A stretch of 64,000 nt of DNA from Dictyostelium discoideum (GCA_000004695.1 CM000153.2:4576001-4640000), one strand, 5' to 3'. Numbered from the stretch's first letter, positions 10,976 through 33,511 are shown. Program-made: numbers and translations. The notes: generated by a model not told the origin, from the letters alone.

Positions 10976-11033
10976 TTATTAATAATACATAAATATATAA
11001 CTAATAATATTATTATCAATAGAATATACATAC

Positions 11034-11625: not shown

Positions 11626-12010
11626 TTATAAATTATCTTCATCTCTAATTACAGCTTCTTCACCTAAACTATTTTTAATTTCTTTTAAAACTTCTTTGGC
11701 ATCAATTCTATCCTCACAATCTTCAATTACTAAATGTACTTCAACTTCTGATGATGGTGCAATATTTAATATTTGTAACATTTCACCTGTTAAAATTTTA
11801 CAACCTGATGTATCTGCTAATTTAGTTACACTCTTTTTACATTCTTTAACTGATTCAATGGTTTGTTTTGATGCTGGTGTTGTTTCTAAATATCTAATTA
11901 CATTATTAACAAATTCATTTAATAATACTTGTTCCTCAATTCTTCTTTTATGTTTTAATAGTTGAAGTACTTCAAAATTTGTAATAATTTCTTCTTTATC
12001 TTTTTTTATT
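11626..12010 (-). CDS. RNA polymerase III subunit RPC9 / CGRP-receptor component protein homologue (Rpb4/RPC9 family), main exon
   Basis: Reverse translation reads (I)KKDKEEIITNFEVLQLLKHKRRIEEQ...VIRYLETTPASKQTIESVKECKKSVTKLADTSGCKILTGEMLQILNIAPSSEVEVHLVIEDCEDRIDAKEVLKEIKNSLGEEAVIRDEDNL*. Compare human CRCP NYEVFQLL...[47 protein letters not shown] acceptor lies immediately 5' of 12010. The listed plus-strand ORF 11696..11965 is the antisense of this exon. Confidence 0.7.
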
Positions 12011-12016
12011 CTAAAA

Positions 12017-12051
<35 letters not shown>

Positions 12052-12182
12052 AAAATAAAAAAAATTATAAAAAATAATAAAAAATTATAAAAAATTATAA
12101 AATTTTTTTTTTTTTTTTTTGATAATATTAGAAATTGAATATGTTTTAATAATATTTCGATTATTATTTTTTCCTATTTTAC

Positions 12183-12190
12183 ATTTTCAT
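12183..12190 (-). CDS. Putative 8-nt first coding exon of the RPC9 homologue (ATGAAAAT + GTAAAA donor)
   Basis: This is the nearest upstream minus-strand ATG. With a 172-nt AT-rich intron it joins in frame to give MKI-IKKDKEEIITNFEVLQLL, which parallels the short human N-terminus. It is purely a splice inference with no homology support at this length. Confidence 0.25.
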
Positions 12191-12406
12191 TTCAACTTTT
12201 GAAAACTTTTGCCAACAAACTACCAATTTTTATTTTTTTTTTTTTATTTTTTTTTTTTTTTCACAATTTTTTTTTTTTTTTTTAATTTTTTTTTATTTAT
12301 TTTTATTTTTTTTATTTTTATATATTTTATTTTTTATTTTTTTTTTTTTTAATTTCAAATTTTTAATTTTTAATTCAAATAAATATAAATATATAATATA
12401 CAAATA

Positions 12407-12490
12407 ATGGTTAAAAGTAGAGATTCTGATTCCGATGATGATTTGGATGAGGAGTTATTTCAATTAACTGAAAAGAAATCAAATAAAAGA
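12407..12490 (+). CDS. rtf1: RTF1 (Paf1 complex subunit) exon 1
   Basis: MVKSRDSDSDDDLDEELFQLTEKKSNKR, followed by a GTATAT donor at 12491. It joins in phase 0 to the downstream ORF. Confidence 0.6.
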
Positions 12491-12611
12491 GTATATTATT
12501 TATATGAATATTCATTATTTATTAAATTATTTTATTATTATTATTAATATATACTAATTTTATTAATATTTTTATTTATATTTTATTTTTATCATTTATT
12601 ATTTATTATAG

Positions 12612-14411
12612 ATTAAATCAAATGAATCAAGTGATGAAGATTTTGAAGAAAATAAAAATAAAAAAAAGAAAACATCAGGACCAGGTAGAAAGAAAGGTTC
12701 AACATCAATGCAACAATCAACTATAAACTATGGTAGTAGTCGTAGGAATAGAGGTGCATCAATTGAGAATGATGATGATTTTAATGATGGTTATGATGAA
12801 GATTTATATAAAGATGATAATGATAGATATGAACTTTCATTATTACCAGAAATTGATAGAGAAAATATATTATCAGAAAGATATGAAAAGAGAAAAGAAG
12901 CAAGAGAACTTTGGTTACAACAAAAATCAATTAGAGATAGAGAAAAGAAATCTGGTTCACAAGTTGACAATAAATTAAAATCACAATCATCAACTAGAGG
13001 ACGTAGTGAAAAAGAGGATAGACAAAGAGAAGCATTAAAAGATTTACAAAAGAAAAGAGAGAAATCTAAAAAAGATAAAGAAGAGGAGGAGGATAGCGGC
13101 GGTGGTGGTGGTGGCGGTACTACAGGTAGTGCATCAAGTAGTAATAATAACACACCAACTTCATTATCAGCCAATTCAACACCAAAAACTTCATCATCAA
13201 GAATTGAACAAGATAATCGTGATAGAGGTAGAGAAAAAGAGAGAGAACGTGAGCGTGAACGTGAACGTGAAAGAAATATAGAGAAAGAGATTCAAAGATC
13301 AGTTGATACATTAAATATCAACTTAATGAATCAATGTAGATTATCAAGAAATATGTTGGTTAAATGGGTTGATCAACCTTATTTTGAAAGGTATGCACCA
13401 AACTTTTTCGTACGTGTTGTTATTGGTTCACATTTAAATAATCCAATCTATAGAATTGCAGAGATTGTTGAAATTCGTACAGGTCATAAACAATATAAAG
13501 TAGAGAATAAAGAAACTGATAAACTTTTGGTACTATCCTATGCTGGCTCAACTAAAGAGTTTGGTATTGAGAATGTTTCAAATAATGCAATCACACCAGC
13601 CGAACACGAGAAATGGATCTCTGATATGGTACGTGCTAAACAAGTTTTACCAACACCTGAAGAGATTGATATGAAGATTGGTGATATTAAGAAAGCTCAA
13701 GATTATACCTACACCAATGAAGATATTGAAAAGAGAGCATCTGACAGAAGTAAATATCTAAAGACTCCTGTCAATATTGCCATTGAAAAGGCGAAATCAA
13801 TTGCACTTCGTGAAACATTGGATCCACAATCACAAGAATATAGAACCATTTGTGAGAAAATTGAAGAGTTGACAAAGTTGGCAATAAGCATTAAAGAAGA
13901 GAATGTTTCAAAGGTTGATCAATTAATTCAAACCATTAATAAAAAGAATAAATCATTAAACTTTAAATATCAATCAACTACTCAAACTTCAACTGAACAA
14001 GTTTCAAATGAATTTGATCCATTTGCAAGAAGAAAAACTAGAAATTGTGCTGTAGTTGCTGCTGATACTTCAAGTATAGTCATTTCACCAACCAATTCTA
14101 CAACTCCAACTACTACCAGTCCAATTAATGCTACTTTATCACCATCTGCTCAATTTTTAGAGAAATCAAAAAATTCAACTACCACCACTTCCACTAATGA
14201 TTCTAATAATACTCGTTCACTTTATGACGTTCATAGATCAATCGATTTAAATATTCATATTCCTGATCATCCAAATAAAATTTTATCAATGCAACCAAAA
14301 AGGAAAAGACAAATCATTCCTGCAAATATTGTTAAAAATGATCATTCAATGTTTAAAAATATTTTATCATTAAATGAATATTTAATTAAAAGAGATTCAA
14401 TGGTTCAATAA
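12612..14411 (+). CDS. rtf1: RTF1 exon 2 (contains the Plus3 domain)
   Basis: After the TATAG acceptor at 12607-12611 the frame reads IKSNESSDEDF...DDDFNDGYDEDLYKDDNDRYELSLLPEIDRENILSERYEKR (RTF1 N-terminal LESLPEMEREMILAERAEKR motif). Further on is the Plus3 domain NQCRLSRNMLVKWVDQPYFERYAPNFFVRVVIGSHLNNPIYRIAEIVEI...LVLSYAGSTKEFGIENVSNNAITPAEHEKWISDMVRAKQVLPTPEEI. This matches the human RTF1 Plus3 region ([36 protein letters not shown]...). Confidence 0.85.
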   Translation: MKSNESSDEDFEENKNKKKKTSGPGRKKGSTSMQQSTINYGSSRRNRGASIENDDDFNDGYDEDLYKDDNDRYELSLLPEIDRENILSERYEKRKEARELWLQQKSIRDREKKSGSQVDNKLKSQSSTRGRSEKEDRQREALKDLQKKREKSKKDKEEEEDSGGGGGGGTTGSASSSNNNTPTSLSANSTPKTSSSRIEQDNRDRGREKERERERERERERNIEKEIQRSVDTLNINLMNQCRLSRNMLVKWVDQPYFERYAPNFFVRVVIGSHLNNPIYRIAEIVEIRTGHKQYKVENKETDKLLVLSYAGSTKEFGIENVSNNAITPAEHEKWISDMVRAKQVLPTPEEIDMKIGDIKKAQDYTYTNEDIEKRASDRSKYLKTPVNIAIEKAKSIALRETLDPQSQEYRTICEKIEELTKLAISIKEENVSKVDQLIQTINKKNKSLNFKYQSTTQTSTEQVSNEFDPFARRKTRNCAVVAADTSSIVISPTNSTTPTTTSPINATLSPSAQFLEKSKNSTTTTSTNDSNNTRSLYDVHRSIDLNIHIPDHPNKILSMQPKRKRQIIPANIVKNDHSMFKNILSLNEYLIKRDSMVQ

Positions 14412-14676
14412 AATAAAATAATAAAAAAAATAAATAAAAAAAAAAGAATATTAATCTTGAAATACAATATATTTGTTTTGTTTTTTTTAGCAATTAATAA
14501 AATTAAATAAATTTGTAATAGGTTGATAATGTTTTCTATTTTCAAGCAAAACACCAAATATTTAAATAAAAGTAATAATAAAAGAAAACACACAATAAAA
14601 AAATCATTTTAAAATATACATATATTATTATTTTTTTTTGATGTTTTTTGAAAAAAAAAATTTATTTATTCAAATC

Positions 14677-15594
14677 TTAATCAAAGAGACCCATACCCAT
14701 ATCATCATCTGATTCTTCTTTCTTTTCTTCGACGACGACTTTCTTGGCAGCGGCAGCTGGAGCAGCAGCGGATGGAGCGGCAGCAACTGGGGCAGCAGCA
14801 GCGGCTGATTTGAATTTTTCAGCAGCATCGAAAGTGTAAGAGGTTTCGAATGAGATGGCTAATAAATTCTTGAAAGCATTCATGACTGAATGTGGAATTG
14901 AAGCAACGGTTGGGTAACCAATTTCCAAGGAGATGGCAGCAATGTTGAAGATACCTTGTTTGAATTTGTTGATGAGATCTTCTTCAGAGATAGATGGTGA
15001 ATAACAGGCACCAGCATCATAGATGATTTTTGGTTCTAAACCATAGGTGAATGGTTTGATGTTCAATTTTTGTAAGAGGGTAGCTTCTGAGGCACCAACT
15101 TTTTGACCGGTTTTAATGATGTGGACTTCATTGACGATATCGATTTGACCTCTGTTGATTTTAGTGGCAATCTTTAAATCTTGGAGGAAAGAGGTTTGGG
15201 TTGGTTCCATACCAGTTGGACCGGCTGGGATGATAACATCGTTTGGAGCGAAAACACCTGCTTTAGCTGGGGCACCAACACGTTGAGTATTGATAACACG
15301 TTTAACTTCAGCGATGTTATCTTTACAGAAAATGATACAGGTGTTTTGTTTTAAGTAGGTATTTAAGGCATCGAGTTCTGGTTTAGAATCAGCTAAATCA
15401 CGGATGACCTTACGGATCATAGTCTTCTTACCCATGAGAACGGCACCGATACCACGGATGGATTTTCTGATCTTTTGTAATTGGCTTGAACCTACAAAAT
15501 CAGCTTCGGCGACGATCATTTTGTCGTAAGTGGTGAAAAGCTTGGTAGCTTTTTCAATGAAAACGTTCTTTCTTTTACTTCCTGCCCCGGACAT
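14677..15594 (-). CDS. rplp0: 60S acidic ribosomal protein P0 (uL10)
   Basis: The 305-aa ORF is colinear with eukaryotic P0, for example IRKSIRGIGAVLMGKKTMIRKVIRDLADSKPELDALNTYLKQNTCIIFCKDNIAEVK and the C-terminal EESDDDMGMGLFD P-protein tail. Local GC content and codon bias are distinctly higher than in neighbouring genes (a highly expressed gene signature). Confidence 0.95.
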   Translation of the reverse strand: MSGAGSKRKNVFIEKATKLFTTYDKMIVAEADFVGSSQLQKIRKSIRGIGAVLMGKKTMIRKVIRDLADSKPELDALNTYLKQNTCIIFCKDNIAEVKRVINTQRVGAPAKAGVFAPNDVIIPAGPTGMEPTQTSFLQDLKIATKINRGQIDIVNEVHIIKTGQKVGASEATLLQKLNIKPFTYGLEPKIIYDAGACYSPSISEEDLINKFKQGIFNIAAISLEIGYPTVASIPHSVMNAFKNLLAISFETSYTFDAAEKFKSAAAAAPVAAAPSAAAPAAAAKKVVVEEKKEESDDDMGMGLFD

Positions 15595-16515
15595 CTTGTT
15601 GTGTATGAGAATTTAAAGATAAAGTCTGATAATAATAAAAATTATAATTAATATTCAATCCTTTATCAATTATTTTTTTTTTTTTCTAATCTAATCTTTA
15701 ATCTTTATAGATATATGATCAAATTAATGTCATAGTTTCGTTAAAGATTAAAGATTAAATATGTGATATGTAATCATCTCTGTCTAACTATCCATCAATC
15801 TCAATCAATATAAAATTATACATACAATACTGAGACTAAACTTTGAAAAAAAAAAAAAAAAAATTTTTATAGCCCCGCACAAAATTTTTGGAAACGAAAA
15901 AAAAAAAAAAATTTTCTCAATTTTTTCAGCATATCCCCATAAAAATAATAACGTTTGATTATTTATTTATGAATGTAAATAATCTATTTATATTTTCAGA
16001 TAAAATTCTCAAAAATTAAAATTATATATAAATAATATATAATATCTTTTAAAAAATTCAAATAAAAAAGAGATTAATTTTTTGAGATATAAAAAATTAA
16101 AATAATTATTATATTATAATAATAAAAAAAAAAAAAAAGGAAATAAAAATACAAGAAAGAAATACAAATTATATTAAATAAATAAAGGTATTTATTTTCA
16201 CCCCTACCACTTCTTTTTCTTTATTTTTTTTTTATTTTTTTTTATTTTTATTTTTTTTTTATTTTTTTTATTTTTTTTTTATTTTTTAAAATTTGTTTTT
16301 TATTTTTTATTTTTTAAAATTTATTTTTTATTAAAAAAAAAACAAAACGGAAAAAAAGACAAAAAAGATATTATAACATAAAATAGTTTATTTTTTTCTT
16401 ATTATCATATAAAAAAATAAAAAATTTTAAAAGAAAAAAAATAAAAAAAATAAAAAAATAAAACAATAAAGCAATATTATTAAAAATAAAAAAAAAGTTA
16501 AAATTAAATAATAGT

Positions 16516-16585
<70 letters not shown>

Positions 16586-16586
16586 T

Positions 16587-17541
16587 ATGGAAAATAAAGA
16601 AACTACAACAACAACAACTACAACAAATAATGGTAGTGATAAAAAAAAAAGAAGTTTAAAAATTGATTTACATACACATATTTTACCAAAGAATTGGCCA
16701 AATTTAAAAGAGAAATATGGTTATGGTGGATGGGTGTCGTTAGATCATCATTGTTCATGTAAAGCAAAGATGATGATAGATGGTAAATTTTTTAGAGAGA
16801 TCGATAGTAATTGTTGGGATCCAGATGTAAGAATTCAAGAGTTAAATAGGGACGATGTTGATATCCAAGTTTTATCGACAGTACCAGTCATGTTTGGGTA
16901 TTGGGCCAAACCTCAAGATGCATTAGATTTAGCACAATATTTAAACGATCATATAGCACAAGTAGTATCAGAGAACCCAAAACGTTTCATTGGTTTAGGA
17001 AGTTTGCCAATGCAATGCACAGAGTCATCGATTCAAGAGTTACGTCGTTGCATTTTAGAGTTGGGTTTACCAGGTATTCAAATTGGTAGCAATGTAAATG
17101 GAAAGAATTTGGACGACCCATCTTTATTCCCAATCTTTGAGGAATGTGAGAAATTAGGTGCTGCAGTTTTCATTCATCCTTGGGAAATGGTGGGTAAAGA
17201 TAGAATGCCACAATATTGGTTACCTTGGTTAGTAGGTATGCCTGCTGAAACTTGTTTAGCCATTTGTTCAATGATTTTCGGTGGAGTTTTCCAACGTTTA
17301 CCAAATTTAAAGGTTTGTTTTGCTCATGGTGGTGGCTCATTTCCCTTTACTATTGGACGTATCGAACATGGTTTTAATGCTCGTCCAGATTTATGTGCTG
17401 TCGTTAATCCAATTAATCCTCGTGAATACATTGGTAAATTTTGGGTTGATTCTTTAGTTCACGATGAAGAAGCTCTTAAATTTTTAGTAAATTTAATGGG
17501 TGAAAAAAAGGTAACATTAGGTACTGATTATCCATTTCCTT
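16587..17541 (+). CDS. 2-amino-3-carboxymuconate-6-semialdehyde decarboxylase (ACMSD, amidohydrolase-2 family) exon 1
   Basis: KIDLHTHILPKNWPNL, then GWVSLDHH, then DVRIQELNRDDVDIQVLSTVPVMFGYWAKPQDALDLAQYLNDHIAQVVSENPKRFIGLGSLPMQ, then HPWEM, then FAHGGGSFPFTIGRIEHGF, then GTDYPFP. This is the colinear ACMSD metal-binding pattern. GTAAGT is at 17542. Confidence 0.85.
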
Positions 17542-17636
17542 GTAAGTAAAATTTAATTTTTTTTTTTATTATATATATATATTCACCAAGAGAGAAATAT
17601 TAATTACTTTTTTTTTTTTTAAAAAAACTTCAAAAG

Positions 17637-17761
17637 TGGGCGAATTAGTTCCTGGTCAATTAATTGAATCAATTAAAGAATTTAGCGAAACAACTAAAGA
17701 AAATCTTTTAGGTGGTAATGCATTGGAATTTTTGGGGTTGGATCCAAATAAATATTTATAA
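17637..17761 (+). CDS. ACMSD exon 2 (C-terminus)
   Basis: Splicing T|TG reconstitutes Leu and gives DYPFP-L-GELVPGQLIESIKEFSETTKENLLGGNALEFLGLDPNKYL*. Compare human DYPFPLGELEPGKLIESMEEFDEETKNKLKAGNALAFLGL. The intron is 95 nt. Confidence 0.8.
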
Positions 17762-18245
17762 ATACATACATTGTTTTTTTTTTTTTTTTTTTTAGAAACT
17801 TTTTTTAAATTTTTTTTTTTCTTTAAAAAAAAAAAACAAATACAAAAAAATAAAATAAAATAAAAACAAAGGAAAATATTTTAATTTTATTCTTTTATTT
17901 TTTTATTTTTTTTTATACCTATTAAAGTTAAATCTTGATTTTTACCATTGGTGTTTTAGCAATATTTAAACAATTAACAATTTTTATTTTTTATTTATTT
18001 TTCTCAATTAAGTGTAATAGGTTTTGTTTTTTATTGTTTCCAAATCTTTAAAATAAAGTATTTATTATATTTGTAATTATGTTTTTTTTTTATATTTCCT
18101 ATTTTTGGTATTGTTTTTGAAATAAAATTAATTTTATTTTCATTTTTATTTTTTTGACAATTAAACTTTAAATAAAAAATTTAAAAATCTTATTGAAATA
18201 TAAATTAATATTTAAAATTGTTTTATTTTATTTTAAAGGTGGTTT

Positions 18246-19140
18246 TTAAAGTTTTGTACCAACACCAATATAACTGTATGATTTTAATTGTAATTTATTA
18301 TTTTCTAAAGATCTTTTTGGATTTTTTGATTTTGCAATTTCAATAAATAGTGAATCAAATTTTAATTTTAATTCATCAGTATGCAATAGATCTAAACAAT
18401 CAACATATGCAGGATTACTTTTTAATAATATTGAGAGATCTGATAATTCATTTACTTCTAATGGATGTTCAATTCTTGTAATTGAAACATCAATAAAACC
18501 AACTGATTCTAAATGATTTTTAAATTCCAATTCATTTGAAAGTGATGATGCCAATTGTTTGTGAGTTGTTGGTTTACCATTATTTTGTTCTGTTAATAAT
18601 TGATTTAAAGTTTCTCTAAAGATTTCTGGTAAAAATGAATCGGAGCACCATGATGCAATTGCGGTACGACTTTGATTATTTGATTTTAAAACTCTGTACA
18701 TTTCTTTCATGCCTTTTATTAAATCTGGAAAGAAAATTAATCCAAATATACTAAATGTATAATCAATTGAATCATTTTCAATTGAAATTAAATTCTGACC
18801 ATCCATTATATGGGTTTCAATATTTTTTAAATCATTTTCTTTAATGATTTTATAAAGAATTTCAATCATATTTGTTGAGAAATCAGTTGCAATAAATTTG
18901 GAGTTTTTTAAAAATTTCATTCGCTACAATTGTTAATGGTCCTGTACCACATGCAATGTCTAATATTTTCATTGGTTTTTCTTGATTTTCTTTTGGAATT
19001 GTTAAATTTATTGCATCAATTGCAAAAAGAGTTGTAAATCCAGTTGGTTTTGCAAAATTGTTTAAAAAAACTTGGGCAGTTTTATCCCATCCTTTTGATG
19101 ATGTTTGATTTAAATTGCTTTGAATATTTTCTAATGACAT
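18246..19140 (-). CDS. Class I SAM-dependent methyltransferase; the reading frame is broken by an apparent 1-nt frameshift near 18915-18925
   Basis: Upstream ORF (18883..19140): ...GWDKTAQVFLNNFAKPTGFTTLFAIDAINLTIPKENQEKPMKILDIACGTGPLTIVANE. This is SAM-binding motif I (DIACGTG). Downstream ORF (18246..18920) continues in another frame with (E)FLKNSKFIATDFS...IMDGQNL (motif II/post-I). The two overlap by 38 nt. Deleting one A from the run in GCGAATGAAATTTTTAAAAAACTCC joins them as ...IVANEFLKNSKFIATDFS. Confidence 0.6.
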
Positions 19141-20365
19141 TATTAAAAATAAAAAAAATTAAAAAAAAAAAAAAAAATTTTTTGATAAAAATAGATGTTG
19201 TGGAAAAAAAAAAAAAAAAAAAAAAATAATTCAAGTTTCTTTTTTTTTTTGGAAATCAAAAAGAAGTTTATTTTAGAATAAATAAATATAAATTATATTT
19301 TTTTTTGGGTTTTTTTTTTTTTTCGATATTTTGAAACCAATCCCAATAAAACTAAAGGTTTATAATTATTTTTTTTTATTACCTAAAAATCTTTTTTTGA
19401 TTTTTTGATTTTACAATTTCAATCCAAATTTTATATTTTATTCATTGAACTGTAGTTCTTTTATAATGAGAATGGAATATTTTATATTAGTTATTTATTT
19501 ATTATTTCATTTGTTGGAATTGCAGGTGAAAAGAAAACAACAGGATTTCCCCATAATAATAAACTGGTAACAAGCAATTGAAATTTTTTGATGGGTCGCG
19601 ACGTTTATAAATTTATTCTCCATATCAACCATTCTTGAAATGATTACAGAGTTTTACCATTCTCACCAATTGCAGTGTCTGTGGTATTTGGACCTGCATG
19701 ATCCAATAAAGTTAGTGGATTTGGTATTTGAATATTCATTCTATTTTTAAATTTGTGAGGGTGAATGTATTTTTTTGCGTTTTTTTGCGGTGTTTTGCCT
19801 TTTTTATAAATAATAGGGACCATTTTTTCTAAAAAAAACCAAATATAATAAATTAGGTGTACTGGTTTATTGAATTTAATTATAATTATTATAATAAGAT
19901 AAACAAAAAAGAGATTAATAGTTTATTTGTATATTTAAGATAGTAAAGAAAACACAATGATTTTGATTTTTATTTAATATTTTTAGAGTATTTATATTAA
20001 TTTTTTTGAGTACCAGGATTAACCTTCTAAAGTCAGTTAGTATTTAATATTATTTATTGTAACGACAAACCTTCTAAAGTCGGTTATGACTAGTAACTGA
20101 ATTATATTATGATTCTTATGATTTCCATATTAATATCAATACATAAATCCAAGTTAGTTTTTTTTTTTTTTTAATAACATCACTCAATTTGAGTGTGTTC
20201 TAGGAGAGTTTATTTGTTTTTTTTTTTTTTTTTTTTTTTTTTCTTTTTTTCTTGTTATTCTTATTTTTTTTTTTATTATTATTATTATTATATTATTATT
20301 ATTATTATATTATTATTATTATATTATTATTATTATTATATTATTATTATTATTATTATTGTTAT

Positions 20366-20404
<39 letters not shown>

Positions 20405-20409
<5 letters not shown>

Positions 20410-21722
20410 AGTAGTTGGTGTTATATGAGCAGTATGGTATGAAGTGTTCCGGGATGTTTATGGTCATGAGTTTCGAGTTCCAGTTGTGGCTGAATTTTTC
20501 GAGTCTTCTTTTTATTGATGCGGTCCGATTGATTGACTCTCGGTTATCAGTGCATCTTAGTTCTTGACGTAGTTGTTTTTCTACTATCTTTCTTGTTCTA
20601 TCCCATTCGGCATCTCTCGCTTTTTTGATTTTATGAATTATTTGGTTCTCTGTTATTATTGTAGTGTTATCGTTGAATTTTATTTGATTTCTTCTGTACC
20701 ATATCGATTCCATAATGGCTCCTATCAGATTTGATGAGAATGGTGTGAGTAGTTTTCCGAGAACTTTTTCGCTCCATGGACCGTGGTAAGTGTTGTTGGA
20801 GTCTTTACAGACCTTTTGATAGATTGAGTCGATATTCTGTTTTATTGATTTGCATTCGAAGAAGATGTGCATAGACGATTCTTCTTCTTTACATGAGTGG
20901 CAATTCTCCCCATGGTGTTTTGGAAGTGCCTTGAGTAGATATCTCCATGCTAAGTCTCTTCCTTTGATAGTTGTGATTGATCTGGCTTCTCTGAATGGTA
21001 GAATTGGGTGATTAATGTTCTTTTGAATCAGTTTTTGACCTGTTGTTGGCTGGTGTTTGTTCCATCCCTTGTATTTGATATCCATCATGTTTCTATAGAT
21101 TACTTTTAATTTTTGTTTGTTTTCGTATTTGGGTTTGACTTGGTTTAGTTTGAGAGTTATTCGCTCTCTTGGGTGGTGCAACAACTTCCAGGCTTTCCAG
21201 CATTTGATGTGAATCCTTGATAGTGAGTTTTCTTTTTCCGACTTCCAGACTTCCATATGTGGAGGGCAGTTCTGGTCGTCTTTTTCTCTGAGGTATTGTT
21301 CGTATATCCATGCTTTCTGGGCATTGGATCTGGTTGCCATATTCCAGAGTTCCAGGCCTCCAATTTCATAGTCTCTTCTGCTCCTTTCTTTTGAGATAGC
21401 CCACCTGTCCCCTTTGAATAACATGTTGGCATTAACGTTCTCCAGTTTCTTTATGTCATTTATTTCGTTGATGTATAGTTGGAATGTTAGTTGGGACAGC
21501 AGGTATGATTTGAGGATTGTGATTCTACCTTTTAGCGTTGATGACACGCTCGAATAGCATTTTGTGAGGTTTTCCAGTTTGTTCACCGTATCATCTACTT
21601 TGCTTATTACACCTTTGCGGTTGAAGAAAAAGCCAAGATATCTTTCTTCTTCTTTCGCCCCAATTGTCTTATATTTGGTCTTTATCTTTGGGTTTTTAGT
21701 GATGCACACACATTTATTATCG
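20405..21722 (-). CDS. Retrotransposon ORF2, C-terminal (post-RT) portion; N-terminal part lost in the assembly gap
   Basis: 438 real codons before the N-run. It has cysteine/histidine-rich stretches (HHGENCHSCKEEESSMHIFFECKS) as in LINE ORF2 C-terminal zinc-knuckle-like regions. It is similar to the second element in the window. Confidence 0.6.
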
Positions 21723-21822
21723 NNNNNNNNNNNNNNNNNNNNNNNNNNNNNNNNNNNNNNNNNNNNNNNNNNNNNNNNNNNNNNNNNNNNNNNNNNNNNN
21801 NNNNNNNNNNNNNNNNNNNNNN
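21723..21822. other. Assembly gap (100 N) inside the TRE5-type element
   Basis: Run of exactly 100 N. By convention this is a gap of unknown size. The RT/APE part of the element and any ORF1 are presumably hidden here. Confidence 0.95.
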
Positions 21823-22260
21823 AAGTGTTGTTGTTGATGTTTTTTCTCTTACTGATTATTTTTTCCTTTTTTTTGAAAATTTTGCGAAGCAAAATTTTCA
21901 AAAAAAAGAAAAAAATAAATTACAATAAAATAAAGAAATAAAGAAGTTTACTCTAAGTGTATTTTATTTTATTTTTTTTAAGTCTTTTTTTTATATGAAA
22001 AATGAAATAATCAAATAAAAAAAGTGTTGTTGTTGATGTTTTTTCTCTTACTGATTATTTTTTCCTTTTTTTTGAAAATTTTGCGAAGCAAAATTTTCAA
22101 AAAAAAGAAAAAAATAAATTACAATAAAATAAAGAAATAAAGAAGTTTACTCTAAGTGTATTTTATTTTATTTTTTTTAAGTCTTTTTTTTATATGAAAA
22201 ATGAAATAATCAAATAAAAAAAGTGTTGTTGTTGATGTTTTTTCTCTTACTCGTTAGTTT
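21823..22260. repeat. Tandem repeat, 199-bp unit x about 2.2 (copies start at 21823, 22022, 22221). Candidate duplicated 5' A-module/promoter module of the TRE5-type element.
   Basis: The unit AAGTGTTGTTGTTGATGTTTTTTCTCTTACTGATTATTTTTTCC...GAAATAATCAAATAAAAA repeats with a period of exactly 199 nt. The third copy diverges after 30 nt (..CTTACTCGTTAGTTTT) and ends about 34 bp before the tRNA. Confidence 0.85.
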
Positions 22261-22293
22261 TAATATGGTGAATTTTTATTCAAATTTCACCAA

Positions 22294-22367
22294 GCCTTAG
22301 TAGCTCAGTTGGTACGAGCGTGAGACTGAAGATCTTAAGGTCGCTGGTTCGATCCCGGCCTGAGGCA
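22294..22367 (+). tRNA. tRNA-Phe (anticodon GAA)
   Basis: GCCTTAGTAGCTCAGTTGGTACGAGCGTGAGACTGAAGATCTTAAGGTCGCTGGTTCGATCCCGGCCTGAGGCA. The acceptor stem GCCTTAG/CTGAGGC has one G-U pair. The D-arm is GCTCAGTTGGTA..GAGC. The anticodon loop is CTGAAGA. The T-arm is GGTTCGATCC with the discriminator A (box A/box B consensus). It is almost identical to canonical eukaryotic tRNA-Phe. Confidence 0.92.
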
Positions 22368-22438
22368 AATTTTTTATTTCACACCCCCCAAAATACAGAT
22401 CGCATGTTCGACTCCCATATAAAAATATAGAAAAAACC

Positions 22439-22456
22439 ATTTCACCCACAGTTAAA
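22439..22456 (+). repeat. 5' target-site duplication (ATTTCACCCACAGTTAAA) of the downstream retroelement
   Basis: Perfect 18/18 match with 25042..25059. The 5' copy lies immediately before the ORF1 ATG. The 3' copy lies immediately after an A16 tail. Confidence 0.8.
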
Positions 22457-23122
22457 ATGAATTTTTTCGATAAACTTAAAGGTGAACTCAACTTTGGCGA
22501 AGAAGAGTTAAATAAAAAAACTATTCAAATAAGGTTATTCTACCCACATACCTTGGAATTGAATAGTAATTCAACAAAATTAATAGATAATTTCATAGTT
22601 AATGGTACTCTTAACATTGTCAGAAGACAAAAGGGTATAACAGTATTCGGTAGAATACTAAAAGAAAAATTCACATTATTACACGAGTGTTACAGCACTT
22701 TCAAGTATGAAGATTTTCCACTGCAAAAATTCATACTTTACACCCCAGGATATCACTATGTCCACTTTTACACATTTACAAAAAACATAATAAAAAAAAT
22801 AAACAATCAAATGGTAAAAGAAAACTGGGGATTGGAGCCATTACTAATAGATGAATGCAACATAGTACTGCTACCAGATGTGATTAGATATTCATGCATA
22901 CTATTATTTAATAAAGAAGATGATATCTCAATCATTGATGCTATAAAAGGTAGTAAGCATCCAATAAGAGCCTTCATCTCTGAATATAACAATAAAGAAA
23001 TAAGAGATGTTAGAAAAAAAAAAACACAAGTAATAAAAACCAACAACCAACAACTACAAATACAACTAAATCAATACCATCAACTCCACCAACAACTAAT
23101 GCATCAACAACCACACCAATAA
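22457..23122 (+). CDS. Retrotransposon ORF1 (221 aa)
   Basis: First ORF of the element, starting exactly at the TSD boundary. It has a Gln/His-rich C-terminus. I have no recognisable domain by eye. Confidence 0.5.
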   Translation: MNFFDKLKGELNFGEEELNKKTIQIRLFYPHTLELNSNSTKLIDNFIVNGTLNIVRRQKGITVFGRILKEKFTLLHECYSTFKYEDFPLQKFILYTPGYHYVHFYTFTKNIIKKINNQMVKENWGLEPLLIDECNIVLLPDVIRYSCILLFNKEDDISIIDAIKGSKHPIRAFISEYNNKEIRDVRKKKTQVIKTNNQQLQIQLNQYHQLHQQLMHQQPHQ

Positions 23123-23318
23123 CAACCACACCAATAACAACCACACAAACAACAACCACACCAACAACAACCACACATCAATTACCAACAAGCAATACAA
23201 CAATCTACAACCTAAACAAAACTACTACTACTACTACTACTACTACTACAAAACCTATCAATAAAATTACTACAAGCAATGGTACCAAGTTTCCAATTGC
23301 CAGTAGTATTAGAAAATA

Positions 23319-24506
23319 ATGGAACAATTAAAATTATTACTATGGAACTGCAGAGGTAATCAATCAACCAACGCTAAGAATAAAACAGAAGAAACGATAA
23401 AAAGAATTGGCACTCAATTAGCACTCCTAACTGAAACTAATTTCAATGGATTCAACCACCACAAAACAATGTTCAACTTTGAAAGAATAGATCATGGTTC
23501 AGGTAAAGGAACTGGCATAGCAATAGAAAATAGAGATACAAGAAAAGGCCACATATCAATAAACTTCAAAGACGATGATGGTAGAATACTATCAATTAAA
23601 TACAATTCCTTTAATTCTATCAACATATTATTGATCTATGCTCCAGCGACTATATCTGAAAGAAACACCTTCATAATCAACTCAAAATCACTGTTTAAAA
23701 AATATAATTCAATCAACCATCAAATAATAGCAGGCGACTTCAATAACAACCACGATTGCAACAGCTTCTTCGGTACTGAATTACGTAAAATAATAGACCA
23801 AGACATGCTACTAGATACTGGTATTGAAGATAACACTCCAACATTTCCAAGATCAATGAAGAGACTAGATAGAATCTACTGTCATCCAACACTACTAAAC
23901 CAAAATTCAAAACTGGTAGTCCACAACACAGTATTTAACAAATCAGATCACTTTCCCATCACAATCACAATACAAACCAACAGAGAAACAACAACAACAA
24001 CAACAACCAAACTAGAAAGACTCCCTTGGACATTATGTAAAGAAATTCTCAACAACAAACATATACATGATGGGTTATCAGAATTAATCAGTAAGAACAA
24101 AGATAAGATCAAATCAGTGGAGGAATGGACGAAATTTAAAAATAATGTCATCAGAGATTATTTAAAAAAAGAACAAAACAAAATAAAGAAAGAAAAGAAC
24201 AAAAGAAAATACGTAATCCACAAATTACTTGGAAATAGTGATATCATTCCAAAGATGAGAAAAGAACTCAATGAAGAAATAAGTAGAATATTAGAAGAAG
24301 AAAGAAAGGTAAAAGCATGGGATATCAAATTAAAACTCCACCTGCATCAAGAAACACCAAGCAAATACCTCACAAGTATCCTTAAATCCAAGATCACTTC
24401 CAGGTATCAACCACGAAAGAGACACCAGATGCAAGATCTGTGGCCACCTTTTCAGAGACCCTTATTCTCACCTCTTCACTCTATGCCAAGATATCCTAGA
24501 TATTGA
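23319..24506 (+). CDS. Retrotransposon ORF2 N-terminal part: AP-endonuclease (EEP) domain, truncated before the RT domain
   Basis: EEP catalytic motifs are in order: N-x-R-G (WNCRGN), TET (LTETN), GDFN, and SDH (KSDHFP). The ORF ends at 24506 without reverse-transcriptase motifs, so the element has an internal deletion. Confidence 0.65.
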   Translation: MEQLKLLLWNCRGNQSTNAKNKTEETIKRIGTQLALLTETNFNGFNHHKTMFNFERIDHGSGKGTGIAIENRDTRKGHISINFKDDDGRILSIKYNSFNSINILLIYAPATISERNTFIINSKSLFKKYNSINHQIIAGDFNNNHDCNSFFGTELRKIIDQDMLLDTGIEDNTPTFPRSMKRLDRIYCHPTLLNQNSKLVVHNTVFNKSDHFPITITIQTNRETTTTTTTKLERLPWTLCKEILNNKHIHDGLSELISKNKDKIKSVEEWTKFKNNVIRDYLKKEQNKIKKEKNKRKYVIHKLLGNSDIIPKMRKELNEEISRILEEERKVKAWDIKLKLHLHQETPSKYLTSILKSKITSRYQPRKRHQMQDLWPPFQRPLFSPLHSMPRYPRY

Positions 24507-24564
24507 AAAAACCATCATATCAACAGTTAACAAATTATCATTCATCAAAATCCACAGATGGTCA

Positions 24565-24882
24565 ATGGAAACCTTAGACATATCAAAATACAACAGAACT
24601 GAGAGAATCTTCCCCAATCTCATAGGAATAATAGCACACCAATTATGGAAGATAATCTGTCACAAATTGTTCAACACTGATGAAAGCAAACCAGAGCCAA
24701 AATTCGAACAAAAGGTCATAGAAACAGAATTACTAAATCTCATCGAAACTGAAAAATTCATCACACTAAAGAAAATCAAACACGACGAAGCAATACTAAA
24801 AAACACCAATCAAGATCTTCACAAATACAAATTCAACAAAGCCTGGCAAACCCCAGCAGCTCCGAACCCTCTTCCAATTTAA
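24565..24882 (+). pseudogene. Remnant of the ORF2 C-terminal region of the TRE3-type element
   Basis: IGIIAHQLWKIICHKLFN... resembles the C-terminal segments of the two minus-strand elements (LIGAIMESIWYRRNQIKFN; LMALILHNIWIWICNQIY). It is in a different frame from the APE ORF. Confidence 0.45.
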
Positions 24883-25041
24883 GTAGTAGTAAAAAAAAAA
24901 AAAAAAAAAAAAAAATAATATAATATAGTTTAAAAAATTTAATACAATTGAATAATAAAAATAAAACCGTTTAACAAACACCGCCGAAAAGACACAAGGA
25001 CATTCCTTGAAGGTCTGATCACAGGTAAAAAAAAAAAAAAA

Positions 25042-25059
25042 ATTTCACCCACAGTTAAA
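25042..25059 (+). repeat. 3' target-site duplication (ATTTCACCCACAGTTAAA)
   Basis: See the 5' copy at 22439..22456. It follows A16. Confidence 0.8.
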
Positions 25060-25191
25060 TTAATTATTTTTATTTCTTTTACTGGGATAATTGAAAACAT
25101 TAGAATTTAAACATTTCTTTTTAAAATTCAAATTCCTTAAATAAAGCTATTAATTATTCTATATTTCCTTTAAAGGATAAACTATGATCAA

Positions 25192-25222
<31 letters not shown>

Positions 25223-25241
25223 TCATACCCAACTATATTTT

Positions 25242-25275
<34 letters not shown>

Positions 25276-25294
25276 TCATACCCAACTATATTTT

Positions 25295-25334
<40 letters not shown>

Positions 25335-26944
25335 ATCTTCATTTTTTCTATAAAAAAAAAAAGGGTGTATCTAACTCTTTATTTTTATTGTTTTATTATT
25401 TTTATAGATAATTGTGGATCATCTATGTATTAAATAATATATGAATCCTATTTAAAAAATGGCAGATGCTTTAAATATTTGTGTAGAATCTGACATATTC
25501 AATGAATCATATTTATCTCAATTTATATAATAATTTTAAATTTAAATAAAAAATCTAAATATGGTTTTTTTTTTTTTAAAGAGATAATTCATGGGTTTTG
25601 AAAGTATTTATTTTTATTTTTTATTTTTTATTTTTATTATTTTTAAAATAAAATTGAATAATAAAAAAAAAATAAAAAAAATAAAAAATATAAGAAAAAA
25701 AAAAATTAATCAATCTAAATCAATTTCTATTTTGAAAAAAAAAAAAAAAGAAAAAAAAAAAAAAAAAGTAATTAGGATGAATTTTCCTTATTGGGAAATA
25801 AAAAAAGTAAAAAGTATAATTTTTTTTTTGGAAATCAAGATCAAAAAATGTAACTCTTTTTGGGTTTACCAAATTTGGGTATCTTTTATTAAAAAAAAAA
25901 AAAAGTTTCAATTAAAATTTTTTAGTATAAAAAGACAAAAAATTATTAATTATTTTAAAAAAAAAAATAAATAAAATTTCAAAAAAAAAAAAAAAAAAAA
26001 AAAAAACAAAGAAATTTTACATTTTAGAAAAAACAAAGTTATAATTTTAATGTAAAAAAAAAAAAAAAAAAAAAAAAAAATTATAATTCTGGACATAAAA
26101 TATCAAAAGGTAAATTTTAATTTTAATTTTCTTATTTTTATTTTTTTAATTTTTCAAATATTTAATACATTAAATAATTTACCATTCTCTTTCTAATTAT
26201 TAGGTATAATGTAAAATTTATTTTTGTCTTTAAACTGTCCCAAATGAAATAAAACTTCCAACAGGTGTAATTAAATGTCAATACAACGGTTTTTTATTTT
26301 TTAAAAAAAAAAAGATAGTTTTATTAAGTGGTAGTTTATTTAGTATTGGTCGGTACTAACTCAATGTCTGAGAATCAAAGGATTTTATTTATTTTAAAAA
26401 ATAAATCTTTCAATTCTCAGGCTTTGCTAATTGGTAGATTGGTATTTAACAGCTTTCACTTAATAATATTTTTAAATTAAATAAACTAACTGATTGTCGA
26501 CAATAAACCATAATTTTACATGATAATTTGGACTTAATGCAAGGTAAACTATATTAATACTTTAATTCCAACACTATTTTATAAATATTGCAATTTTCTA
26601 ATAATATATATTTTAGATTGATCCAAGGATTTAATATCTGTCAACAGTACTATTAAAGGATATTGGAAGGTTAAAATCTAAACGTTAAAAAATAATATTA
26701 AATAAAATAAAATAAAATAAAAAAATATAAAAAAAATCTTATTTTAAAAACAAACAAACAATACATATTAATCATTAAATACTAATAGATTAAATTGTTT
26801 TTTATCCAATTAAAGGTCAAGATAAAATCGGGTAGATTTAATACTCGAAAAAAAAAAAAAAAAAAAAAAAAAAAAACAATAATAATTATAAAAAACAAAA
26901 ATAAATTAGGTTTTAATTGAGATGTATTATAGATTATTATAATT

Positions 26945-27153
26945 AATGATTTCTAATATTAGATTTTATTTTTATTTTATTTTAATTATTTTCCCAATTA
27001 ATTATTTCTTAAAAAAAATAAAATTAACTATATAAAAATAAAACTTCAATATATTTATGTAGTTAATTTTATTCCTTTTTTATGAACTAATTAATTGAAA
27101 AAATAAAATAAAATAAAATTATAAAGGATAAAATCTAATATTAGAAATCATTT
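26945..27153. repeat. Inverted repeat / large palindrome. There are perfect 26-bp arms (AATGATTTCTAATATTAGATTTTATT at 26945-26970; reverse complement at 27128-27153). Imperfect extension of the arms runs inward.
   Basis: Direct comparison of the two arms. The inner flanks TTTTATTTTATTTTAATT and AATTGAAAAAATAAAATAAAATAAAATT are also mutually complementary. The central spacer is about 60-100 bp. Confidence 0.8.
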
Positions 27154-27332
27154 TTAGGGTAATTTGATTGAAAATTCAAAAAAAACTATTTTTTATTTTT
27201 TTTTTAATTTTTTTTTTTTTTTTTTTAAAAATAAATTTGGAAGATTCTTTTTTTTTTTGATGTTCTTAGAAGATGACATAAGAAGATCAGCAATTTAATT
27301 AAATTTAATTAAAAATTAGATAAAAAAAATGA

Positions 27333-27369
<37 letters not shown>

Positions 27370-27486
27370 TGCAAAGATTGATTCTTATTTAAAGTTTTTT
27401 TTTTTTATTTTTAATCATTAAATAAAAATAAAATAAAAAACATACAAATAAATAAATAAAAAAGTAAAAAAAAAAAAATAATTAAA

Positions 27487-28368
27487 ATGAATTCAATTGA
27501 AAATAATAATAAAAATAATAATAAAAATAATAATAAGATTTGGTTAATCACAGGAACATCAAGTGGCATTGGTTTAGAATTAGTAAAGAAGTTATTAACA
27601 TATGGTTATAAAGTTTCAGCATTAACTCGTAGACCAGAAGAAATTGAAAAAGAGATTAAAGAAATTCAATTTGAAAAAGATAATTTATTAATTGTTAAAA
27701 CTGATATTACAAATAATGAATCAGTAAAGAGTGCAGTAGAAGAGACTATTAAACAGTTTGGTAGAATTGATGTGTTAGTAAATAACGCTGGTTATGGTTT
27801 AGTAGGTTCAATTGAAGAGTTATCAGATTCAGACGTTAGAAAGATATATGATGTAAATGTATTTGGTGTTTTAAATTTATTAAGAAATTCAACACCACAT
27901 TTTAGAAAACAAAAATCAGGTTTAATAATTAACATATCCTCTCAAATGGGTTGGGATAATATGGAATATTACTCAGCATATAGTTCAACTAAACATGCAG
28001 TTAATGCAATCACATTCTCTGCACAAAAAGAGTTAAAAGCATTTGGAGTGAATGTAATATTAGTTAGTCCAGGTGGATTTAGAACTGGTTTTGTTGCTGG
28101 TCAACAATCAAACTTTCAAGTACCTTCAAAATTAATTGATGAATACTCAACTCAATCATTCATTGAAATGTTTAATAAACACTCACCATATTCAAAAGGC
28201 GATCCTGAAAAAGCAGCTGAACTCTTAATTAAATTACCAACAATTGAAGAATTACCAAATAATTTATTCATTGGCTCTGATTCATTATCAGCTGCCAAAC
28301 AACAATTACAATCACATTTATTAGAAGCTGAAAAATGGTATGACCTTTCAATTTCAACTGATTATTAA
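27487..28368 (+). CDS. Short-chain dehydrogenase/reductase (classical SDR)
   Basis: WLITGTSSGIGLEL (TGxxxGxG), VLVNNAGYG (NNAG), SSQMG...YSAYSSTKHA (S...YxxxK catalytic triad), PGGFRT. The ORF is an uninterrupted 293 codons. Confidence 0.9.
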   Translation: MNSIENNNKNNNKNNNKIWLITGTSSGIGLELVKKLLTYGYKVSALTRRPEEIEKEIKEIQFEKDNLLIVKTDITNNESVKSAVEETIKQFGRIDVLVNNAGYGLVGSIEELSDSDVRKIYDVNVFGVLNLLRNSTPHFRKQKSGLIINISSQMGWDNMEYYSAYSSTKHAVNAITFSAQKELKAFGVNVILVSPGGFRTGFVAGQQSNFQVPSKLIDEYSTQSFIEMFNKHSPYSKGDPEKAAELLIKLPTIEELPNNLFIGSDSLSAAKQQLQSHLLEAEKWYDLSISTDY

Positions 28369-28605
28369 AAATATTAAAAAAAATAAAAAAAAATAAAAAA
28401 AAATAAAAAAAAAAAAAAAAATAAATAAACCTTTTTGTAAATAATAAACCTTTCAATTTCAACAGAAAAAACCAAAACGAACTTCTGTAGATTAATTTTA
28501 TTTTAAGAGATGTTTATCTTTACTTTTTTTATTAGTTTATTTTCAAAAAGAAAAAATGATTATTTATACTATTCATTTTCATTTGGATCACATAAAAATA
28601 ATAAT

Positions 28606-28637
<32 letters not shown>

Positions 28638-30135
28638 AATTTAAAATACACACACCCACAATCTGAAATGATTCCAAACCAGATTTAAAAAAATGGGTTT
28701 GGAAATATATTTATTGTCAATTAATTTTTTTTTTACAATTTAATGTCGTTCATTGTTTTTGTAATTATTTATTTTTAACTTTGTTTTCAATTTGAATTTT
28801 TTTTTTTTTAAATGAAATAGCACTGGTACTTATAATGATGATTAGGATTTAATTTTTCATTTTATTACTATTCAACTACTAATAAAAAATTAATTTACAC
28901 TTTGTGTGGAAACCTTTAAGATGCAAATTAAGTGTTTCTCTTAAATGTAAAATGAGGTAAACATTATTGATTTATAAATTAATGGAATTCGTGAATAAAT
29001 ATTAAAAAAAAAAATAAAAAAAAAATGGAAATTAATTATCAAGTATTAATAATTCATATTTTTTAGGCATTGAAACAAAGAAATTCAACAAAATAATTAG
29101 TTATTATTACAAAAGCTTTTGATATTAGTTTGCCCATTTCTTATTCCTATTTCCTTGATTCCCATTTCCTGTTTTGGAATGAAAAAAAAAAAAAAAGTTT
29201 GGCATTCGGTTGGAAAAATAAAAAATAAAAAATAAAAAATAAAAAAAATAAAAAAAAATAAAAAAATAAAAATGAAATTTATGACATTATAAAATTTTAT
29301 ATTTATAGGTTTTTTTTTTTTTTCAAAATCACACTTTCATACCTGTCATAAAAAAAAAAAAAAATTATTATTATTACAATAATTTATCTTTAAAGTAAAT
29401 TAATAAATAAAGTAGTGAAATTGATTTTATTATTATAATTTTTTTTTTCCTTTTTTCTAAACAGATTTTTATTTTTTTTTATTTAATTTTAATGTAATTT
29501 TATTTTTTTTTATTTTTTTTTTTATTTTTTTTTCAATCACAACAGCCAACAATTTTTTAACAAAAAAAAATATCTTAAAAAACATATTTAAAAAATTTAA
29601 AAAATAAAAAAAAAAAAAAACGATCGTTGTTGAAAAATGTTAAAACATTGCAAGGTGGACAAATTATTTTTTTTTTTTTTTTTTTTATTTTTTTATTTTT
29701 TTATTTTATTTTTTTTTTTTTTTTTTTTTTTTTTTATTAAAAATGAAAATATATGACCACCAAATCGCTATTGATTATTATTGATTTCTTCCATACAACC
29801 TTCACATCAATGTAATCTTTAATATACAACCCAAACACCTTTGTATTATCAAAAAAAAAAAAAGAAAAGAAAAGGAAAAACAAAAGCAAAATAATATAAT
29901 AAAAAAAAATTACCTCAAAACAGAAAGAGTTTTTTTTTTGAGGAATTAATTTTTAAAATAGTTATTTTTTTTATTATTATATTTTATTTTTTTGAGAGAA
30001 TTTCTATTACAATTAATAATCAAAAAAAGGTAATTTTTTAAAAACTTTAATTATTTCATACTTTCACAATTTTTTTTTTTTTTTATTTTTACCATCTTAT
30101 CGAATCGAACAATCAAAAAAAATTTTCAAAAAAAA

Positions 30136-30167
<32 letters not shown>

Positions 30168-30790
30168 AAAAAAATATAAATCAAATTGATATAAAAATAT
30201 AAACATAAAAAAATAATAAATTATCATAAAACATTTTTCAAGCAAAGAAAGTGTCGTTGTTATTGTTTTTTTTTTTTTTTTTTGTGTGTATTGTAGGGGT
30301 AAACCAACACATCCAAACATTGAAATAAAACTGATTTGTTTTTGTGTTGTGTTGTGTCGGTGTGGTCTTTTTTAAATCTTTTTTTTCTTTTTTTTATTAT
30401 TATTTTTAGTCTTTCACACCTTTTTTTTATTTATATATACTATTTTATATAATTTCTACAAATGTTATAATCAAAATTAACAAACCAAGCACACTTATAA
30501 CCCCACATGTGATTAAAAATTAAAAAAAAAAAAAAAATAAAAAAAAAAAAATAAAAAAAAACTTAAAATTATTTATATTATTATCATTATTATTATTTTT
30601 TTTTTTTTATATTTTTACCTTTTATTCTTTATCTCAATGATAAATATAATTTTAATTTTTTAATTTATTTTTAACCCATTTTGTTTATTTGCGTGTTGAA
30701 GTTTTTTTTTTTTTTTTTTTTTTTTATCATCTCTCTATTTGTACATTTAATTAAATTTGTAAAACTACCCATCAATTTCTTTTATTTAAA

Positions 30791-30824
<34 letters not shown>

Positions 30825-31141
30825 TTTTATATTTAATTTTATTATTTTTTTTTATTTTTTTTTATTTTTTTTTTTTGTATGTAAATAACCCACATATACT
30901 AATAAACATAAAATAATTATTATTTTTACCCATATTATTTTTTTAGTATATAATAAATTGTACATATACAATATATTCACCCATATATTTTTTTTTTTTT
31001 AAAAAAAAAAAAAATATACAAAATAAATTACTTTAATATAATAATAATAATAAAAATAATAAAAATAATAATAATAAAAAAAAAAAAACAAAGTTATATA
31101 TATATATATAACTAAATTCAGTTATAAATTTTTTTTTAAAT

Positions 31142-33511
<2,370 letters not shown>

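Follow-up and report, generated by a model that had tools for sequence, protein, structure and literature searches.

In Dictyostelium discoideum, tRNA genes are targeted by two known classes of non-LTR (non-long terminal repeat) retrotransposons, TRE5 and TRE3; a TRE is found at 61% of the tRNA genes, and 13% have both a TRE5 and a TRE3 (PMC5006619). TRE5 elements lie 40-54 bp upstream of tRNA genes in opposite orientation (PMC5911963), with a range of 34-82 bp for TRE5-B (PMC5006619, Table 1), and their orientation is fixed so that the 5' end of the element faces that of the tRNA (PMC3159450). TRE3 elements, guided by an internal or external B box that lies ~100 bp away, are found 40-150 bp downstream of tRNA genes and share their direction of transcription (PMC5911963). 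Here we describe a tRNA-Phe(GAA) gene of D. discoideum that is flanked on both sides by non-LTR elements, within a stretch of 64,000 nucleotides (GCA_000004695.1, CM000153.2:4576001-4640000), which is referred to as the window.

Among the described upstream elements, TRE5-A has the structure AB-ORF1/ORF2-BC (ORF, open reading frame), with A, B and C modules of 200 bp, 290 bp and 134 bp (PMC3159450), and its close relative TRE5-B has no C module (PMC3159450, PMC4559204). The consensus lengths are 5971 bp for TRE5-B and 4734 bp for TRE3-C, the latter being an outlier near TRE5 in reverse transcriptase (RT) trees (PMC5006619). Integration of TRE5-A ~50 bp upstream of tRNA genes needs an intact B box, to which TFIIIC binds, and probably a DNA-bound RNA polymerase III (Pol III) transcription complex; its ORF1 protein binds TFIIIB subunits in vitro, as does that of TRE5-B, and target-primed reverse transcription is the assumed route of its integration (PMC3159450, PMC5006619, PMC5911963). 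A 3'-terminal hairpin is required for TRE5-A retrotransposition (PMC3159450, PMC5006619, PMC5911963). The yeast elements Ty3 and Ty1 share with the TREs an integration that is directed to Pol III genes and avoids coding DNA in a compact genome (PMC5911963), but they are LTR elements that use an integrase and integrate at other distances.

The tRNA-Phe(GAA) gene and its two flanking elements

The tRNA-Phe(GAA) gene, the sole tRNA gene that ARAGORN found in the window, has very probably been hit independently by both known classes, upstream by a TRE5-class element that fits TRE5-B best and downstream by a TRE3-class element that fits TRE3-C best. The upstream element lies on the minus strand and the tRNA gene on the plus strand, so that the two stand head-to-head with the array of A-like modules proximal to the tRNA, and 41 nt (41-42) separate the 5' end of the element (22252) from tRNA base 1 (22294). 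The downstream element, on the same strand as the tRNA, begins 89 nt past the 3' end of the gene and exactly 100 nt past the internal B box. Both positions are within the published TRE5 and TRE3 ranges. The analysis itself shows the positions, distances and orientations, the target site duplications (TSDs) and tails, which domains are present, and that the arrangement recurs at other tRNA genes. The original prediction of a Pol III gene with a TRE5-type element upstream and a TRE3-type element downstream was right at the class level, considering anatomy, distances, orientations and the recurrence at other tRNA genes. It had further placed a minus-strand LINE-like (long interspersed nuclear element-like) element with tandem 5' modules about 35-45 bp upstream and a plus-strand element 90 bp downstream with an 18-bp TSD and an A16 tail, both of which agree with the measured values, and the gene itself was confirmed by ARAGORN and Rfam (Table 1).

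The T6 run behind the gene is presumably the Pol III terminator expected at this place. Further downstream, 41 nt before the start of the TRE3-type element, lies an external B-box-like motif whose core GTTCGACTC matches GTTCRAnYC, the B-box consensus of D. discoideum (PMC3159450). Its position is that at which external B boxes, described for ~80% of D. discoideum tRNA genes, are placed (PMC5911963).

The two-TRE arrangement is real and well above chance, yet it is ordinary for this genome. With both classes present at 13% of the tRNA genes (PMC5006619), the earlier description of the locus as known biology and not a new system was correct. As such, the locus yields no new principle, but a clean and dissectable case of two LINE lineages with Pol III-complex-directed integration at one tRNA in a gene-dense genome. 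In practice little is gained: the element boundaries are corrected, the sequence behind an assembly gap is known, the downstream copy is recognised as dead and without RT, and the array of 5' modules counts 5.4 units in a gap-free assembly.

Table 1. Features of the tRNA-Phe(GAA) locus and of a third TRE in the window (positions count from the first base of the window)
Feature	Position	Strand	Remarks
tRNA-Phe(GAA) gene	22294-22367	+	ARAGORN; Rfam RF00005 match, 62.5 bits
A box TAGCTCAGTTGG	22301-22312	+	within tRNA-Phe(GAA)
Internal B box GGTTCGATCCC	22346-22356	+	within tRNA-Phe(GAA)
T6 run	22370-22375	+	3' of tRNA-Phe(GAA)
External B-box-like motif TGTTCGACTCC	22405-22415	+	38 nt 3' of tRNA-Phe(GAA)
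Distal TSD copy, 9-bp GTTAGTTTT	20153-20161	.	directly abuts the end of the TRE5-type element
A11-15 tail of TRE5-type element (T-run)	20158-20172	-	
3' UTR (untranslated region) and poly(A) tail of TRE5-type element	20162-20404 (UTR 20173-20404)	-	aligned 3' ends of window, L001 and L003
Conserved 3' hairpin segment of TRE5-type element	20176-20199 (+ strand coordinates)	-	
Internal A39 run of TRE5-type element	20368-20406 (T39 on + strand)	-	right after the ORF2 stop
TRE5-type ORF2, C-terminal 438 codons and stop	20405-21722	-	no stops, open to the gap
100-N assembly gap inside TRE5-type element	21723-21822	.	
Tandem 199-bp A-like 5' modules	21823-22252	-	5' terminus of TRE5-type element; Tandem Repeats Finder and repeat finder
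tRNA-proximal TSD copy, 9-bp GTTAGTTTT	22253-22261	.	directly abuts the end of the TRE5-type element
Left TSD copy, 18-bp ATTTCACCCACAGTTAAA	22439-22456	.	
TRE3-type ORF1, 221 aa	22457-23122	+	begins at the first base of the element
TRE3-type ORF2, N-terminal part, apurinic/apyrimidinic-type endonuclease (APE)	23319-24389	+	Exo_endo_phos, 9.6e-11
TRE3-type ORF2, C-terminal part	24390-24882	+	158 codons at 24406-24882, changed frame
TRE3-type 3' UTR (144 nt, internal A25 run) and A15 tail	24883-25041	+	tail 25027-25041
Right TSD copy, 18-bp ATTTCACCCACAGTTAAA	25042-25059	.	
Third TRE, TRE3-type, different subfamily	61350-64000	-	RVT_1, 2.4e-32; zinc finger; ~100-nt 3' UTR
Poly(A) of third TRE (T-run)	61350-61380	-	

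The downstream element occupies 22457-25041. Its TSD, ATTTCACCCACAGTTAAA, is a perfect 18-mer with exactly two matches in the window, compared with 0.01 expected by chance, and its tail measures A15, or A16 when it is taken to include the first A of the TSD. The C-terminal 158 codons contain a zinc-finger-like CX2CX9HX4C motif. The element is similar to TRE3-C, and also to TRE3-A and TRE3-B, in its poly(A) tail, its TSD and the one-base overlap of ORF1 and ORF2. The start of the element coincides with the ORF1 ATG in two independent copies, at 22457 in the window and at 8976 in L002, a locus from another D. discoideum strain, and from these two copies the TRE3-C-like family appears to be without a 5' UTR.

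The upstream element spans ~20162-22252. Tandem Repeats Finder and a repeat finder gave 2.2 copies, 100% identical, of a 199-bp unit at 21823-22251, which in sense phase are the full units 22251-22053 and 22052-21854, followed by 31 nt of a third unit before the gap. At the other side of the gap, the ORF2 tail 20405-21722 taken alone had no Pfam match; at 82% identity it matches the C-terminal part of P0001, a D. discoideum protein that carries RVT_1, and it contains a zinc-finger-like CX2CX7HX4C motif, as the region after the RT. Low-complexity sequence, A-rich or of the (AAT)n kind, is also present in the 3' UTR.

The T39 run at 20368-20406 was considered as the poly(A) tail of the upstream element, without a TSD, and was rejected, because the 3' ends of the window element and of two related elements at other loci (L001 and L003) align past that run and TSDs were found at the junctions. 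In megablast, window 20158-21715 aligned to L001 12637-11105, continuing to window 20158, and the three 3' ends share a terminal segment ending in CTCCTAGAACACACTCAAATTGAGTGATGTTATT, followed by a second, terminal A-run. The L001 element as defined by this common 3' end is bracketed by an 11-bp TSD, GCAATTTTTTA. In the window, the last 4 T of the distal GTTAGTTTT copy could instead be tail sequence, and this 9-bp TSD is credible by its exact junction position only. The 3' boundary predicted at 20375-20405 was therefore wrong, the element ending at ~20162, so that the predicted start coordinate was ~210 nt too far right.

Within the common 3' segment, just before the poly(A), each of the three sequences can form a hairpin with the loop AAAUU (window 20176-20199 in the minus-strand RNA, L001 12595-12620 and L003 11565-11590). 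One stem pair is compensatory across them, being U-A, C-G and U-G; this support comes from three sequences only, of three TRE5-clade lineages. The conserved hairpin recalls the essential C-module hairpin of TRE5-A.

A gap-free copy of the locus, which shows what the 100-N gap holds, was put together from two overlapping sequences (L005 and L006) of chromosome CM142510.1 in the D. discoideum assembly GCA_054883475.1, which were reached by exact-protein look-up of an SDR-like gene (27487-28368) and the ribosomal protein P0 gene (14677-15594). The overlap of 3930 identical bases gave a composite of 37,870 nt, which aligned to window 4660-21722 at 99.77% and to window 21823-38385 at 99.80%. Considering this identity of ~99.8%, the window is D. 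discoideum sequence and the composite is its orthologous locus. In place of the 100 N it has 4312 nt with 3.2 further A-modules, ORF1, and the APE and RT of ORF2. As the gap-free copy joins the pieces through these 4312 nt, the upstream pieces belong to one continuous minus-strand element. The complete element is ~6.3 kb long, and would be ~5.4 kb with one A unit; its order is the 199-bp array (1076 nt or 5.4 copies, L005 3697-4792), an A33 run, ~90 nt, ORF1 (454 aa) and ORF2, the last in two open pieces. RVT_1 was strong in this ORF2 (1.6e-37), and Exo_endo_phos was weak (1.3e-4, below the Pfam cut-off). The upstream element is a two-ORF non-LTR element whose ORF2 has APE, RT and zinc finger, with a poly(A) tail. 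The array, of which 2.2 copies stand beside the gap compared with 5.4 in the gap-free assembly, is probably what broke the window assembly. In the mouse, the LINE L1 likewise has at its 5' end a tandem array of ~200-bp promoter units, the 5' UTR monomers, whose copy number varies. The likeness is that of the array only, since sequence and host are unrelated, and a promoter role of the 199-bp units would be by analogy.

The same geometry was found at other tRNA genes. On the TRE5 side, it was seen at three loci only (L001, L003 and L004), which do not make up a census. The upstream element has a full-length relative in L001 (6551-12637), which stands head-to-head with a tRNA-Thr, 46 nt upstream of it; this relative is colinear with the window element at 75-79% nucleotide identity, and at its 5' end it matches part of the 199-bp unit at 91-97%. 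In L004, from D. citrinum, 1.4 A-like units lie 48 nt upstream of a tRNA-Glu, and L003 has a 5'-truncated, more distant TRE5-clade member 45 nt upstream of a tRNA-Leu, both again head-to-head. The full-length relatives in L001 and L004 start with the same 5'-terminal sequence as the window array. On the TRE3 side, copies of the downstream family were found in L002 in a head-to-tail TRE3 tandem behind a tRNA-Phe and as a 5'-truncated copy behind a tRNA-Pro, and in L004 as a 3' fragment ~60 nt behind a tRNA-Lys; all of these share the orientation of their tRNA. L002, a different tRNA-Phe locus, was ruled out as the ortholog of the window locus, since its flanks differ from those of the window.

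Three further observations were made at these loci. In its ORF1 region, the L001 relative is ~850 nt longer than the window element; this difference and the divergence of ~21% suggest that strains of D. discoideum hold two or more TRE5-B-like sublineages. In L003 9835-11775, the target sequence (at)atatacattct occurs three times, bracketing first the TRE5-clade element, which is 5'-truncated, and next a separate fragment of 129 nt that has an A-tail of its own. As the fragment fits the four C-module positions mutated in PMC3159450 (T15, C26, A35 and C38), it probably stems from an insertion of the TRE5-A C module alone into this same site. Behind the tRNA-Pro of L002, a 14-nt minisatellite (TTCCTTTTTTCAA-like, ~20 copies; 15775-16060 and 15000-15035) contains the TRE3-C-like copy that is 5'-truncated, along with another, very small fragment whose end reads AGGT(A)n.

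Considering what is known of TRE5-A, the same targeting logic may extend to the TRE5-B-like upstream copy, and the TRE3 element would have been positioned via a B-box-bound complex. In target-primed reverse transcription, the ORF2 endonuclease would nick the target, and the 3'-OH would prime cDNA synthesis on the 3' end of the element, where the conserved hairpin of the TRE5-B-like copy would act as the recognition site of the RT.

Subfamilies, decay of the downstream copy and alternative readings

When the downstream element was compared with related copies, both of its ORFs were found to be damaged. Compared with the 291-aa ORF1 of L002, ORF1 has a 12-nt deletion and a frameshifting deletion of 1 nt. 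RVT_1 was not found in any piece of ORF2 by Pfam domain search; the L002 copy of the family has an RT. Nucleotides 1-1934 of the element match one L002 copy at 98.2%, and its final 653 nt align at 98.3% with the 3' end of a second L002 copy. The deletion joint is at 24389/24390 (...CCTTAAATCC|AAGATCACTTCC...), and the lost part, with the breakpoints placed on ORF2 of the other TRE3 type, corresponds to about residues 391-1017, or ~1.9 kb including the RT. The orthologous locus, an independent assembly, has this junction too, and therefore the deletion of the RT is real. The downstream copy is a dead, RT-less relic with a frameshifted ORF1.

The deleted copy retains both termini, the endonuclease, the zinc finger and the perfect 18-bp TSD. 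In its internal ORF2 deletion, intact termini and clean TSD it resembles TRE5-A.2, a non-autonomous, ORF2-deleted element that is mobilised in trans. It could accordingly be read as a TRE3 counterpart of TRE5-A.2, a non-autonomous derivative that transposed in the deleted state with RT provided in trans, and, separately, the upstream element could be a TRE5-B sublineage with a promoter-module array of variable copy number. However, the deleted TRE3 form was seen at one locus here, and there is no evidence of second copies or of transposition when deleted. We regard this combined reading as doubtful, and retain that of two independent insertions by members of the known classes.

The subfamily names are inferences from structure, length, exclusion and relative divergence. 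Searches for a subfamily name gave little: protein homology searches and a cluster look-up returned only 'hypothetical protein' entries from recent Dictyostelium assemblies, BLAST without low-complexity filtering returned AT-rich noise alone, an exact-protein look-up of the transposon ORFs of the window and of one host ORF gave no record, and the literature had nothing relevant for k-mers of the 199-bp unit.

The upstream element fits TRE5-B best and would be TRE5-B-like rather than TRE5-A, because it is without B and C modules, TRE5-A primers are unmatched and its size class loosely fits. No B or C module follows ORF2, where the 3' UTR consists of an A-run, (AAT)n and the conserved hairpin segment of ~50 nt. 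Four quantitative PCR primers for TRE5-A ORF1 and ORF2 (PMC4559204) had no match in the full-length ortholog at up to 6 mismatches, nor in the window or any locus fetched; as there was no positive control, this test is useful as a negative only. With TRE5-B, the element shares the head-to-head position ~40 bp upstream, two ORFs with APE, RT and zinc finger, the absence of a C module and, loosely, the ~6-kb class. The length comparison is loose, being ~6.3 kb including 5.4 A units here and 5971 bp for the consensus, and the copy at this locus differs in its 5' array of 5.4 units of 199 bp, as seen in the gap-free assembly.

The main alternative for the upstream element is a TRE5-A copy in which the 199-bp unit would be the canonical A-module. 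The tRNA-proximal end of DRE/TRE5-A reportedly carries one or several tandem A modules, an observation ascribed to Marschalek et al. (1992). The promoter-bearing 5' module of TRE5-A, ~200 bp long, can be repeated in tandem, as the 199-bp unit is here. The target position and orientation are also the same, and the unit of 199 bp is close to the 200-bp A-module (PMC3159450). However, the duplicated B module of TRE5-A and its C module are missing, with neither found after ORF2 in the window element and only ~110 nt between the A array and the ORF1 ATG in the orthologous copy. In addition, the four ORF1 and ORF2 primers are absent, and the 129-nt L003 fragment, the putative C module, has no counterpart in the window. 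A TRE5-A copy is therefore very unlikely, and the earlier hint that the 199-bp unit is the TRE5-A A-module was unsupported, given the absent modules and unmatched primers. We keep the TRE5-B-like assignment.

The downstream element fits TRE3-C best. With the breakpoints placed on ORF2 of the other TRE3 type, its intact length is estimated at ~4.5-4.7 kb. The RT of its family is 41.8% identical to that of the other TRE3 type and 37.9% to that of TRE5; RT and APE are both roughly equidistant from the TRE5 element and the other TRE3 type. Considering this length and the near-equidistant RT, as for the outlier TRE3-C, a TRE3-C-like element would be the closest fit. The window copy differs from TRE3-C by the loss of ~2 kb including the RT and by the frameshift in ORF1.

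Several points weigh against the reading as TRE5-B-like and TRE3-C-like insertions. The subfamily names rest on structure, length and exclusion, and the TRE5-A primers were used without a positive control. The upstream element has ~21% nucleotide divergence from L001, the only other full-length relative fetched, and it could belong to a sublineage that is not identical to the published TRE5-B consensus. The upstream TSD of 9 bp is short and half T, with several chance-level matches in a blind 9-mer search. The 9-mer of the external B box alone is not statistically rare, with 8 occurrences in the window compared with 4.6 expected; the G+C content of the window is ~23%.

Three other explanations have next to no weight. 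That the ORF2 tail and the 199-bp array are different elements or a scaffolding artefact, with no single TRE5 beside the tRNA, is suggested by the 100-N gap between them and by the 100% identity of the units, as is often seen in collapsed repeats, but is extremely improbable, since the independent gap-free ortholog, with flanks at 99.8% over 17 kb and 16.5 kb, joins both via 4312 colinear nt and the L001 relative has the same organisation from end to end. An assembly collapse in place of a real deletion in the downstream element would agree with the match of its two halves to different places and strands in L002, but is hardly credible, as the same junction stands in the independent ortholog, contiguous with window 21823-38385 at 99.8%, and the two copies in L002, which is another locus, are separate. 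Finally, the downstream element is most implausible as the LTR retrotransposon Skipper-2/DGLT-P, which also lies downstream of tRNA genes (PMC5006619), or as a generic LINE landed by chance: no LTRs are present, the element ends in poly(A) and is bracketed by an 18-bp TSD, it encodes an APE-type endonuclease and, at the C-terminus, a zinc finger, and Skipper-2 in D. discoideum lies 8-23 bp downstream.

A third TRE and a repeat behind the downstream element

A third TRE of the window extends past the window end, and an N gap is inside it at 63600-63699. The element is 99% identical to a full-length ~5.2-kb copy in L002 that starts ~100 bp behind another tRNA-Phe, which fits TRE3-A or TRE3-B (~5.2 kb) as its putative subfamily. 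The tRNA targeted by this element would be past the window end. The 301 nt past the gap (63700-64000) are 100% identical to 62399-62699, so that the region is either two tandem copies or a mis-join.

At 25196-25332, runs of A25, A31 and A37 are split by two identical 22-mers, CTTCATACCCAACTATATTTTC, and a degenerate third copy follows the last run. This region looks like repeated scars of poly(A) plus TSD left by extremely 5'-truncated TRE3 insertions; alternatively, it could be a slipped minisatellite. Without the TRE3 element, it would be ~225 nt behind the tRNA.

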